Below, piece by piece: positions 7,173 through 44,493 of a stretch of 64,000 nucleotides of DNA. The notes beneath the pieces were generated by a model that ran no database searches, was not told where the DNA came from, and saw only the letters and a program-made list of their open reading frames with translations. This DNA is from Escherichia coli. Its GTDB lineage: Bacteria > Pseudomonadota > Gammaproteobacteria > Enterobacterales > Enterobacteriaceae. The stretch lies in the NCBI RefSeq assembly GCF_003334815.1, contig NZ_QOWO01000012.1; one strand, written 5' to 3'. The position numbers and the translations under genes are program-made. The stretch's first letter is position 1. Each line of letters opens with the position of its first letter.

Positions 7173-10185
<3,013 letters not shown>

Positions 10186-10190
10186 ACACT

Positions 10191-10414
10191 GCCGGATGCG
10201 GCGCGAGCGCCTTATCCGGCCTACGGGTCGGCAACAGTTGTAGGCCTGATAAGACGCGACAGCGTCGCATCAGGCATTGATTGCCGGATGCGGCACAAGT
10301 GCCTTATCCGGCCTACAGGTCGGCAATAGTTGTAGGCCTGATAAGACGCGACAGCGTCGCATCAGGCATTGATTGCCGGATGCGGCGCGAGCGCCTTATC
10401 CGGCCTACGGGTCG
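10191..10414. repeat. Tandem BIME: about 2.4 copies of a 92-bp unit of paired inverted REPs
   Basis: gccggatgcggc...cttatccggcctac...gtaggcctgataagacgcgacagcgtcgcatcaggca recurs with period 92 (unit starts 10191, 10283, 10375). Confidence 0.9.
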
Positions 10415-10451
10415 TGCATCCGACAACACCGAATTTACAGGAACACAGAAC

Positions 10452-11276
10452 ATGCAAAACATTACTCAGTCCTGGTTTGTCCAGGGAATGATCAAAGCCA
10501 CCACCGACGCCTGGCTGAAAGGCTGGGATGAGCGCAACGGCGGCAACCTGACGCTACGCCTGGATGACGCCGATATCGCACCATATCACGACAATTTCCA
10601 CCAACAACCGCGCTATATCCCGCTCAGCCAGCCCATGCCTTTACTGGCAAATACACCGTTTATTGTCACCGGCTCGGGCAAATTCTTCCGTAACGTCCAG
10701 CTTGATCCTGCGGCTAACTTAGGCATCGTAAAAGTCGACAGCGACGGCGCGGGCTACCACATTCTTTGGGGGTTAACCAACGAAGCCGTCCCCACTTCCG
10801 AACTTCCGGCTCACTTCCTTTCCCACTGCGAGCGCATTAAAGCCACCAACGGCAAAGATCGGGTGATCATGCACTGCCACGCCACCAACCTGATCGCCCT
10901 CACCTATGTACTTGAAAACGACACCGCGGTCTTCACTCGCCAACTGTGGGAAGGCAGCACCGAGTGTCTGGTGGTATTCCCGGATGGCGTTGGCATTTTG
11001 CCGTGGATGGTGCCCGGCACGGACGAAATCGGCCAGGCGACCGCACAAGAGATGCAAAAACATTCGCTGGTGTTGTGGCCCTTCCACGGCGTCTTCGGCA
11101 GCGGACCGACGCTGGATGAAACCTTCGGTTTAATCGACACCGCAGAAAAATCAGCACAAGTATTAGTGAAGGTTTATTCGATGGGCGGCATGAAACAGAC
11201 CATCAGCCGTGAAGAGTTGATAGCGCTCGGCAAGCGTTTCGGCGTTACGCCACTCGCCAGTGCGCTGGCGCTGTAA
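10452..11276 (+). CDS. rhaD: Rhamnulose-1-phosphate aldolase RhaD
   Basis: ORF 10281..11276 runs through the REP array; true start is the ATG at 10452 ([25 protein letters not shown]...), 274 aa, class II aldolase. Confidence 0.93.
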
Positions 11277-18901: not shown

Positions 18902-21900
18902 ATGCAGGTCAGCAGAAGGCAGTTCTTTAAGATCTGCGCTGGCGGTATGGCAGGCACCACGGCAGCGGCACTGGGTTTTGCACCCAGCGTAGCACTCGCG
19001 GAAACCCGGCAGTATAAACTGCTGCGCACCCGCGAAACCCGTAATACCTGCACCTATTGTTCCGTAGGCTGTGGGCTGTTGATGTACAGCCTCGGTGACG
19101 GAGCAAAAAACGCCAAAGCATCTATCTTCCATATCGAAGGCGATCCGGATCACCCGGTCAACCGCGGTGCACTTTGTCCGAAAGGCGCTGGCCTGGTGGA
19201 TTTCATCCACTCCGAAAGCCGTCTGAAGTTTCCGGAATACCGTGCGCCAGGTTCTGATAAATGGCAGCAAATCAGTTGGGAAGAGGCGTTTGATCGCATC
19301 GCCAAACTGATGAAAGAAGACCGCGATGCTAACTACATTGCGCAAAACGCCGAAGGCGTGACTGTTAACCGCTGGCTCTCCACCGGGATGCTGTGTGCTT
19401 CCGCGTCGAGTAACGAAACCGGCTATTTAACGCAAAAATTCTCCCGCGCGCTGGGTATGCTCGCGGTCGACAACCAGGCGCGTGTCTGACACGGACCAAC
19501 GGTAGCAAGTCTTGCTCCAACATTTGGTCGCGGTGCGATGACCAACCACTGGGTCGACATCAAGAACGCCAACCTCGTCGTGGTGATGGGCGGTAACGCC
19601 GCTGAAGCTCACCCGGTCGGGTTCCGCTGGGCGATGGAAGCCAAAATTCACAACGGCGCGAAGCTGATTGTGATCGATCCTCGCTTTACGCGTACGGCGG
19701 CGGTAGCTGACTACTATGCCCCTATTCGTTCCGGTACTGACATTGCTTTCCTGTCAGGCGTATTGCTGTACCTGCTGAACAATGAAAAATTCAACCGCGA
19801 ATACACCGAAGCCTATACCAACGCCAGCCTGATCGTGCGTGAGGATTACGGCTTTGAAGATGGCCTGTTCACCGGCTACGACGCGGAAAAACGCAAGTAC
19901 GATAAATCCTCCTGGACTTATGAACTGGACGAAAACGGCTTCGCCAAACGCGATACCACGCTGCAACATCCGCGCTGCGTGTGGAACTTGCTGAAACAGC
20001 ACGTTTCCCGCTACACGCCAGATGTGGTTGAAAACATCTGTGGTACGCCAAAAGACGCGTTCCTGAAAGTCTGCGAATACATCGCAGAAACCAGTGCTCA
20101 CGATAAAACTGCCTCGTTCCTGTATGCCCTCGGCTGGACGCAACACTCCGTTGGTGCGCAAAACATTCGTACGATGGCGATGATCCAGCTGCTGCTCGGC
20201 AATATGGGGATGGCAGGCGGCGGCGTTAACGCCCTGCGCGGTCACTCCAATATTCAGGGGCTGACGGACCTGGGGCTGCTGTCGCAGAGCCTGCCAGGTT
20301 ACATGACGCTGCCAAGCGAGAAGCAGACCGATCTGCAAACCTACCTTACCGCCAACACGCCAAAACCGCTGCTGGAAGGCCAGGTAAACTACTGGGGCAA
20401 CTACCCGAAATTCTTCGTCTCTATGATGAAGGCCTTCTTTGGTGATAAAGCGACGGCGGAAAATAGCTGGGGCTTTGACTGGTTGCCGAAGTGGGATAAA
20501 GGCTACGACGTCCTGCAATACTTCGAGATGATGAAAGAGGGCAAGGTCAATGGCTATATCTGCCAGGGCTTTAACCCTGTTGCCTCATTCCCGAACAAAA
20601 ACAAAGTGATCGGTTGTCTGTCGAAACTGAAGTTCCTCGTCACCATCGACCCACTGAACACTGAAACCTCTAACTTCTGGCAGAACCACGGTGAGCTGAA
20701 CGAAGTTGACTCGTCGAAGATCCAGACCGAAGTGTTCCGTCTGCCATCGACCTGCTTCGCGGAAGAGAACGGTTCTATCGTTAACTCAGGTCGCTGGTTA
20801 CAGTGGCACTGGAAAGGTGCGGACGCCCCGGGGATTGCGCTGACTGACGGCGAGATCCTCTCCGGTATCTTCCTGCGCTTGCGCAAGATGTATGCCGAAC
20901 AGGGTGGCGCGAACCCGGACCAGGTGCTGAACATGACATGGAACTACGCCATTCCGCATGAGCCATCTTCAGAAGAAGTGGCGATGGAGAGCAACGGTAA
21001 GGCGCTGGCCGATATTACCGATCCGGCAACCGGTGCGGTTATCGTCAAGAAAGGCCAACAACTTAGTTCGTTCGCCCAATTGCGCGATGACGGTACAACC
21101 TCCTGTGGCTGCTGGATTTTCGCCGGTAGCTGGACGCCGGAAGGCAACCAGATGGCACGCCGTGATAACGCCGATCCGTCTGGCCTCGGTAACACGCTGG
21201 GCTGGGCATGGGCATGGCCGCTTAACCGCCGCATTCTGTATAACCGCGCCTCCGCAGATCCGCAGGGTAACCCGTGGGATCCGAAGCGTCAGTTGCTGAA
21301 ATGGGACGGCACTAAGTGGACCGGCTGGGATATTCCGGACTACAGCGCAGCGCCTCCGGGTAGCGGCGTCGGGCCGTTTATCATGCAGCAGGAAGGCATG
21401 GGGCGTCTGTTTGCCCTCGATAAGATGGCGGAAGGTCCGTTCCCGGAACACTACGAGCCGTTTGAAACGCCGCTGGGAACTAACCCGCTGCATCCAAACG
21501 TTATCTCGAACCCGGCTGCACGTATCTTTAAAGACGACGCCGAAGCATTGGGTAAAGCCGATAAGTTCCCGTATGTCGGAACCACCTATCGTCTGACCGA
21601 GCACTTCCACTACTGGACCAAACACGCGCTGTTGAACGCGATTTTGCAGCCAGAGCAGTTTGTGGAAATCGGGGAGTCGCTGGCGAATAAACTTGGCATT
21701 GCCCAGGGCGATACCGTGAAAGTCTCCTCCAACCGTGGCTATATCAAAGCCAAAGCGGTGGTGACCAAACGTATTCGCACGCTGAAAGCGAACGGCAAAG
21801 ATATCGATACCATCGGTATTCCGATTCACTGGGGCTATGAAGGCGTAGCTAAAAAAGGCTTTATTGCCAATACTTTAACGCCATTCGTTGGTGATGCGAA

Positions 21901-24606: not shown

Positions 24607-24705
24607 GCCTGATGCGCTGCGCTTATCAGGCCTACCAATAAACTGCAATACATTGAATTTATACGACTTTGTAGGCCGGATAAGGCGTTCACGCCGCATC
24701 CGGCA
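24607..24705. repeat. REP elements downstream of fdhE
   Basis: gcctgatgcgctgcgcttatcaggcctac and gtaggccggataaggcgttcacgccgcatccggca. Confidence 0.85.
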
Positions 24706-41130: not shown

Positions 41131-41207
<77 letters not shown>

Positions 41208-44277: not shown

Positions 44278-44443
44278 TATTTAATCCTTTTGGTTTAAAC
44301 CAGATGAAGCATCTTACGCTTACGCCAAAAAAGAAAGCAATTAACGGCGTATGACTTTGCAGATAATTGTGACAAAGCTCTCTATTGACGTAACCACAGA
44401 CTTATAAGGGAGATACTCGCATTGGTGTGCGCTCACGACAGGC

Positions 44444-44476
44444 AAAAAAAAACCTGCCATCGCTGGCAGGTTTTTT
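44444..44476 (-). terminator. Intrinsic terminator of typA
   Basis: Minus strand: cctgccagcgatggcagg followed by a T9 run, about 20 nt after the typA stop. Confidence 0.85.
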
Positions 44477-44493
44477 ATGACTAAAAAACGAAA

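Follow-up and report, generated by a model that had tools for sequence, protein, structure and literature searches.

A five-REP BIME-2 allele between rhaA and rhaD of the rhaBAD operon in an Escherichia coli strain

REP elements within operons and the rhaA-rhaD spacer

One of the closest described systems is the intercistronic REP element of malE-malF, which, in work attributed to Newbury et al. in 1987 and to Khemici and Carpousis in 2004, reportedly protects the upstream mRNA from 3' exonucleases. Like the rha locus, malE-malF carries its REPs between cistrons of a sugar-utilisation operon, but it is a REP pair with a reportedly demonstrated effect, whereas the rha element is a multi-unit tandem array for which we infer one. 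A second system, REP325, located between yjdM and yjdN in K-12, is, like the rha element, a Y/Z2 tandem array of the BIME-2 type inside an operon of co-oriented genes. Experimental data identify REP325 as an mRNA stabiliser and a partial Rho-dependent attenuator, roles that are proposed by analogy for the rha array. The two differ in period (100 in REP325, 92 in rha) and in linkers (17 and 13 nt versus 15 and 7 nt); REP325 has 12 REPs, and their orientation relative to the operon mRNA is opposite to that of the rha array. Across the genome, tandem gene pairs that are separated by REPs show a higher ratio of upstream to downstream expression. A 2026 preprint describes REP effects as context-dependent, with mRNA half-lives not uniformly changed, and REPs placed after a reporter gene have often failed to stabilise its mRNA in the literature.

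Two classes of these elements have been defined. BIME-2 consists of y and z2 REPs with a short S linker and an s/l/r flank, in tandem copy numbers that vary among strains, whereas BIME-1, found in single copies, contains z1 and a long L linker that often includes an IHF site (PMC3333891). The K-12 element between rhaA and rhaD has been named REP299a-i, after EcoCyc, and placed within rhaBAD (bioRxiv 10.1101/2024.07.17.603846), and the same interval, "rhaA>-rhaD>", was entered as a BIME-2 of 401 bp by Sutormin et al. 2019 (PMC6379681 Table DS3).

The locus described here lies in a 64,000-nt stretch of E. coli DNA that was analysed as a whole (the window). Its array shares with K-12 REP299a-i the locus, the Y and Z2 REPs, the linkers and the 92-bp period, and the flanks of the two are 100% identical over 800 nt. 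The K-12 allele has 9 REPs, 4.4 units and a spacer of 450 bp, versus 5 REPs, 2.4 units and a spacer of 266 bp in the window; removing exactly two internal units (184 bp) from the K-12 allele gives the window allele. The main reading, to which we give a probability of roughly 85%, is that the array is the window strain's five-REP BIME-2 allele of REP299a-i, inside rhaBAD and between rhaA and rhaD, acting by the mechanism proposed below. The element is already catalogued, its class and the functional ideas about it are already in the literature, and nothing about it is new here.

Composition of the array

Positions 9900-10700 of the window match E. coli strain H2 (NZ_CP010163.1) at 100% identity, and in H2 the RefSeq genes at the locus are rhaS, rhaR, rhaB, rhaA, rhaD, rhaM and frvABX. 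Gene positions were carried over from the RefSeq annotation of H2 (window coordinate = locus coordinate + 5899).

In the preliminary description, the rhaA-rhaD interval was said to hold a tandem BIME built from inverted REP pairs, with a 92-bp period, two inverted REPs per unit and starts at 10191, 10283 and 10375, and all of this was recovered by TRF, a repeat search and pattern parsing. A single array was reported by TRF at 10190-10414 (period 92, 2.4 copies, 93% matches, 0% indels, score 415), and it was the sole tandem repeat with a score of at least 60 in the whole 64-kb window. The repeat search of the array found three 92-nt copies in register, at spacings of 92 and 92, as well as nested inverted repeats of the kind expected for REP palindromes; the three starts are those of the Y REP stems. 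For the REP core GTAGGCCKGATAAG, shuffles predict 0.02 occurrences in the window; 13 are present, 5 of them inside the array. Pattern parsing gave five REP hairpins in the order Y>, Z2<, Y>, Z2<, Y>, each matching the Y or Z2 pattern with zero mismatches and each carrying GTAGGCC(G/T)GATAAG on the appropriate strand, with linkers of 15 nt (tail-to-tail) and 7 nt (head-to-head). The features of the spacer and its flanks are as follows.

8926..10185, plus strand: rhaA, L-rhamnose isomerase coding sequence (RefSeq H2; stop codon TAA at 10183-10185)
10186..10190, plus strand: spacer ACACT, 5 nt, from the rhaA stop codon to the first paired base of REP 1
10191..10224, plus strand: REP 1, Y type, forward, GCCGGATGCGGCGCGAGCGCCTTATCCGGCCTAC (RNA hairpin -21.3 kcal/mol)
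10225..10239: tail-to-tail short linker GGGTCGGCAACAGTT, 15 nt
10240..10275, minus strand: REP 2, Z2 type, inverted, GTAGGCCTGATAAGACGCGACAGCGTCGCATCAGGC (hairpin -21.9 kcal/mol)
10276..10282: head-to-head linker ATTGATT, 7 nt (contains an in-frame TGA at 10278-10280 and the TTG at 10281)
10283..10316, plus strand: REP 3, Y type, forward (inner-stem variant GGCAC/GTGCC)
10317..10331: tail-to-tail short linker AGGTCGGCAATAGTT, 15 nt
10332..10367, minus strand: REP 4, Z2 type, inverted (same sequence as REP 2)
10368..10374: head-to-head linker ATTGATT
10375..10408, plus strand: REP 5, Y type, forward (same sequence as REP 1)
10416..10426: GCATCCGACAA in the rhaD leader, complementary to the Y-REP head TTGCCGGATGC (inverted repeats)
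10439..10442, plus strand: Shine-Dalgarno-like AGGA, 9 nt before the rhaD ATG and unpaired in the predicted fold
10281..10451, plus strand: spurious 57-codon upstream extension of the rhaD open reading frame (ORF), reading through REPs 3-5
10452..11276, plus strand: rhaD, rhamnulose-1-phosphate aldolase, true coding sequence of 274 aa (RefSeq, PDB 1gt7, NCBIfam)

The rhaA-rhaD spacer is 266 bp long in the window, and a leader of 43 nt separates REP 5 from the rhaD ATG. The segment GCATCCGACAA within this leader is probably a relic half-REP. The inner stem of REP 3 (GGCAC/GTGCC, 10295-10304) differs from that of REPs 1 and 5 (GGCGC/GCGCC, 10203-10212 in REP 1) by a compensatory change from G:C to A:T that keeps the palindrome, and one-sided intermediates of this Y inner stem (GCACGAGCGC) are present in other strains.

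Read directly from its sequence, the array is a BIME-2. Inverted Y and Z2 REPs alternate in it, its tandem copy number at this one locus varies between strains, and the whole array is extragenic, beginning after the rhaA stop (10185) and ending before the rhaD start (10452). Judged by length, the linkers of both kinds are short (15 and 7 nt). The hallmarks of BIME-1, namely a Z1 REP, a long L linker with an IHF consensus and a single copy, are absent from the array.

REPs occur at other places in the window as well. Y/Z2 pairs lie at 1321-1398, 24622-24684 and 51111-51194, single REPs lie near 41151, 48191 and 63825, and none of these other sites is a multi-unit tandem array.

Copy number among E. 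coli genomes

With a query of 800 nt made up of the flanks only (400 nt from the 3' end of rhaA and 400 nt from the 5' end of rhaD), the locus was present in 5,403 of 5,426 complete E. coli genomes. In BW25113 (NZ_CP193896.1), the rhaD segment of the query matched in its 3' part only, which is consistent with the known engineered deletion of rhaBAD in this laboratory strain. Spacer lengths were taken from 59 genomes picked at regular intervals along the ranked matches, and were distributed as follows.

82 bp: 10 of 59 genomes
92 bp: 2 of 59 genomes
174 bp: 10 of 59 genomes
176 bp: 2 of 59 genomes
184 bp: 2 of 59 genomes
241 bp: 7 of 59 genomes
266 bp: 5 of 59 genomes
276 bp: 1 of 59 genomes
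358 bp: 2 of 59 genomes
368 bp: 1 of 59 genomes
450 bp: 15 of 59 genomes
460 bp: 1 of 59 genomes
723 bp: 1 of 59 genomes

These sampled genomes, together with the fetched loci, bear out the earlier expectation that array copy number differs between strains. Pattern parsing of representative loci gave Y(Z2-Y)n, where n is 0, 1, 2, 3, 4 or 7. The spacers that are 10 bp longer than another class reflect a 10-bp difference in the leader, as seen in the one such allele fetched (L007). A Y REP located 5 nt after the rhaA stop is kept in every allele examined. A B2-type allele with a 266-bp spacer (L010) carries Y variants unlike those of the 266-bp allele in the window, and the same copy number has therefore been reached independently.

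Some alleles depart from simple changes in unit number. The largest allele seen (strain 23CRST011, L003:401-1123) has 15 REPs (n = 7) in 723 bp, with a 3-bp deletion in its first Z2 REP. The last REP of the 176-bp spacer of strain YJ1 (L011:401-576) is chimeric, combining a Y outer stem with a Z2 inner stem, which suggests recombination or gene conversion between the Y and Z2 types. The 241-bp allele (strain OkiPb01708, L004:401-641) has only one REP, of Y type, and after it a dispersed, GC-rich palindromic repeat of an unrelated kind, about 159 bp long (ccctcacccc...gggtgagggg), which is found full-length in 787 of the 5,426 genomes, at a median of 2 places per genome. In about 12% of the sampled genomes this unrelated repeat replaces the expanded units.

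As for the origin of the array, the REP-associated tyrosine transposase TnpA-REP may have spread the REPs by recognising a GTAG-flanked hairpin, and the copy number would then shift through unequal recombination or slippage between 92-bp units. The REPs of the array are imperfect palindromes flanked by a conserved GTAG, as are TnpA-REP substrates.

The alternative that survives best is that the array is a selfish or neutral repeat with no meaningful effect on rha expression, tolerated in a non-essential intercistronic spacer. The span of 1 to 15 REPs in natural isolates speaks for this, as do the independent arrival at equal copy number on different allelic backgrounds and the allele in which repeat units have been replaced by an unrelated dispersed repeat; the natural range and this replacement argue against a strong constraint on the array. 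The uneven effects of REPs on half-lives and on reporter mRNAs noted above point in the same direction. On the other hand, at least one Y REP has been kept at its fixed position next to rhaA in every allele examined, compensatory substitutions preserve the stems, gyrase cleavage has been measured at the K-12 rhaA-rhaD locus, and upstream genes of REP-separated tandem pairs are favoured in expression genome-wide. Taken together, neutrality is possible, but we consider it unlikely, and a functional BIME-2 allele of REP299a-i is the preferred reading.

Possible roles in RNA, DNA and protein

Under this preferred reading, one level at which the array would act is RNA. The RNA of 10170-10470 has a predicted folding energy of -145.3 kcal/mol (z = -7.8 compared with shuffles); the hairpin of a single REP reaches about -21 kcal/mol, and a duplex of neighbouring Y and Z2 REPs between -45 and -54 kcal/mol. 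Neither promoter-like (sigma-70-like) sites nor sites resembling intrinsic terminators (with a U-tract) were found in 9800-10800, and the array should therefore be transcribed within the rhaBAD mRNA. There it could form five very stable hairpins or long Y:Z2 duplexes. By analogy with described REPs, such hairpins should stop exonucleases that degrade from the 3' end, leaving the rhaBA segment protected, and they may also reduce read-through into rhaD to some extent, which would shift expression towards RhaB and RhaA at the expense of RhaD. The structure that a REP stabiliser or attenuator of mRNA requires, stable hairpins located 3' of the protected cistron, is present in the predicted folds. 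The preliminary description had suggested stabilised upstream mRNA and differential expression inside the rhaBAD transcript, a reasonable expectation in view of other REP arrays. By analogy with REP325, mRNA stabilisation or attenuation between rhaBA and rhaD is plausible; literature searches found no measurement of rhaBAD mRNA decay, termination, translation or polarity. REP325 fragments of 2-4 hairpins have been described as lacking Rho dependence (2026 preprint), and the five-REP allele may thus be a weak attenuator.

An effect on translation may be added to this. When a REP lies at most 15 nt after a stop codon, the gene upstream is translated less, according to Liang, Rudd and Deutscher 2015 as recounted in PMC12306157. 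In the window only 5 nt separate the end of the rhaA stop (10185) from the first paired base (10191), which places the first hairpin within the range reported to impede terminating ribosomes.

Strong hairpins in the region could also be taken to mean that the array is an intrinsic terminator that ends the rhaBA transcript, with rhaD transcribed from a promoter of its own. An intrinsic, Rho-independent terminator consists of a GC-rich hairpin followed by a U-tract. In 9800-10800 neither a terminator-like site with such a U-tract nor a sigma-70-like promoter was found, and on this ground both an internal promoter and an intrinsic terminator at the array were rejected. Moralejo et al. reportedly found, in 1993, no promoter activity upstream of rhaD, which also counts against a promoter of its own for this gene. 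This alternative is very improbable.

An equally improbable proposal is that the array encodes naRNA4-like nucleoid-associated RNAs, which would act with HU to condense the chromosome. Two minus-strand segments of the array do score above the gathering score (59.5) of Rfam RF02564, naRNA4: 10335-10405 at 77.0 bits and 10243-10313 at 76.6 bits, each being a Z2-linker-Y segment. On the mRNA-sense strand, the matches reach 56.5 and 53.2 bits, which is below the threshold. The model, however, was built from REP325, and it also matches the Y/Z2 pairs at 1321-1398 and 51114-51191, two pairs of the window that pass its threshold. RF02564 therefore detects the Y/Z2 repeat family rather than a dedicated sRNA gene, and a naRNA4 gene at the array was rejected because these matches are generic to such pairs. 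In addition, an RNA in the sense of the model would be read from the strand opposite to rhaBAD, where no promoter-like site turned up in 9800-10800, and the 2026 preprint reports that REP325/naRNA4 has no measurable effect on nucleoid compaction. Other Rfam matches that reached the gathering threshold in the window were the following.

53435-53688, minus strand: CsrC
54717-54835, minus strand: Spot 42
46399-46506, minus strand: ES222
19484-19542, plus strand: SECIS_3 selenocysteine insertion element
44441-44509, minus strand: STnc370

At the DNA level, the array would be a preferred site of gyrase binding and cleavage. Topo-Seq of a K-12 derivative mapped gyrase cleavage sites in the K-12 rhaA-rhaD BIME-2 under four conditions: 4 sites with ciprofloxacin (Cfx), 2 with rifampicin and ciprofloxacin (RifCfx), 1 with microcin B17 (Micro) and 0 with oxolinic acid (Oxo) (PMC6379681 Table DS3). 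Across the genome, BIME-2 elements contain more gyrase cleavage sites than expected, most of them in Y REPs, and their number rises when transcription is blocked (PMC6379681). Gyrase association is thus supported, as a measured property of the nine-REP K-12 allele and, by extension from it, as an expected one of the five-REP allele in the window.

The preliminary description had named gyrase and IHF as proteins that arrays of this kind can bind, and while gyrase association is backed by the cleavage sites that Topo-Seq mapped in K-12, IHF binding finds no support in this BIME-2, which has neither an L linker nor an exact IHF consensus. No exact match to the IHF consensus WATCAANNNNTTR is present in the array, and the sole match in the 64-kb window is at 60348. 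Matches with 1 mismatch to WATCAANNNNTTR were found on the minus strand at both 7-nt linkers (10270-10282 and 10362-10374), and they are what could be cited for regarding the array as a BIME-1 or RIB-RIP element that recruits IHF. Like the array, BIME-1 and RIB-RIP elements contain inverted REP pairs that include a Y REP, but their Z1 REP, their long L linker with an IHF site and their occurrence as single copies have no counterpart in the array, which is tandem (PMC3333891). An IHF site was rejected after the scan for the exact consensus, and it is hardly conceivable that the array belongs to this class.

At the protein level, the array inflates the predicted rhaD ORF, as the preliminary description had pointed out when it placed the real start at the ATG at 10452. 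The mechanical ORF list gives an ORF at 10281..11276 that starts at TTG and encodes 331 aa; the in-frame TGA of the first ATTGATT linker and the adjacent TTG bound this spurious ORF. In RefSeq, rhaD starts at the ATG at 10452 (a coding sequence of 825 nt) in every allele fetched. Residues 1-274 of the PDB RhaD chains (1gt7, 1ojr and others; 274 aa) align with residues 58-331 of the ORF, and position 1 of the NCBIfam equivalog profiles NF002963 and TIGR02624 aligns at residue 58. The in-frame extension upstream of the rhaD ATG is 0, 24, 31 or 57 codons long among natural alleles, and in the allele with the 241-bp spacer the frame is closed by a stop codon only 21 nt ahead of the ATG. The peptide of the extension is the REP palindrome translated. 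The evidence thus points to the ATG at 10452 and not to initiation upstream of it, and the 331-aa "rhaD" ORF is a mechanical artefact of reading through REPs. That translation of RhaD begins at TTG 10281 and adds 57 residues to its N-terminus, a reading favoured by the mechanical ORF list alone, can practically be dismissed, since RefSeq, the PDB chains and the NCBIfam profiles all begin RhaD at ORF residue 58, the extension is variable in length among alleles and consists of translated REP palindrome, and AGGA sits 9 nt before the ATG; such an N-terminal extension was rejected on these PDB, NCBIfam, RefSeq and allele comparisons.

A further ORF of 92 aa, starting with ATG, runs antisense at 9992-10270 (minus strand) across the 3' end of rhaA, REP 1 and most of REP 2, and is probably another REP-associated spurious ORF. 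The value of these observations lies mainly in annotation quality, REP and BIME arrays being a classic source of inflated or spurious ORFs; curated annotation already avoids the false 57-codon extension of rhaD.

The variation at this locus also allows a more speculative suggestion, which we consider rather improbable: BIME-2 copy number, with its range of 1-15 REPs and its recurrent changes by whole 92-bp units, could be a heritable, strain-specific dial of the RhaBA:RhaD ratio. Such a dial would work through graded mRNA protection and Rho-dependent attenuation, and the flux and toxicity of rhamnulose-1-phosphate and lactaldehyde would then be set by copy number. The two-unit deletion of the window strain relative to K-12 would, in that case, have a measurable expression phenotype. 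The E. coli strains provide a clean natural allelic series (1, 3, 5, 7, 9 and 15 REPs) of an intra-operon BIME-2, and this series could be a convenient system for studying how polarity inside an operon is tuned by the number of REPs.
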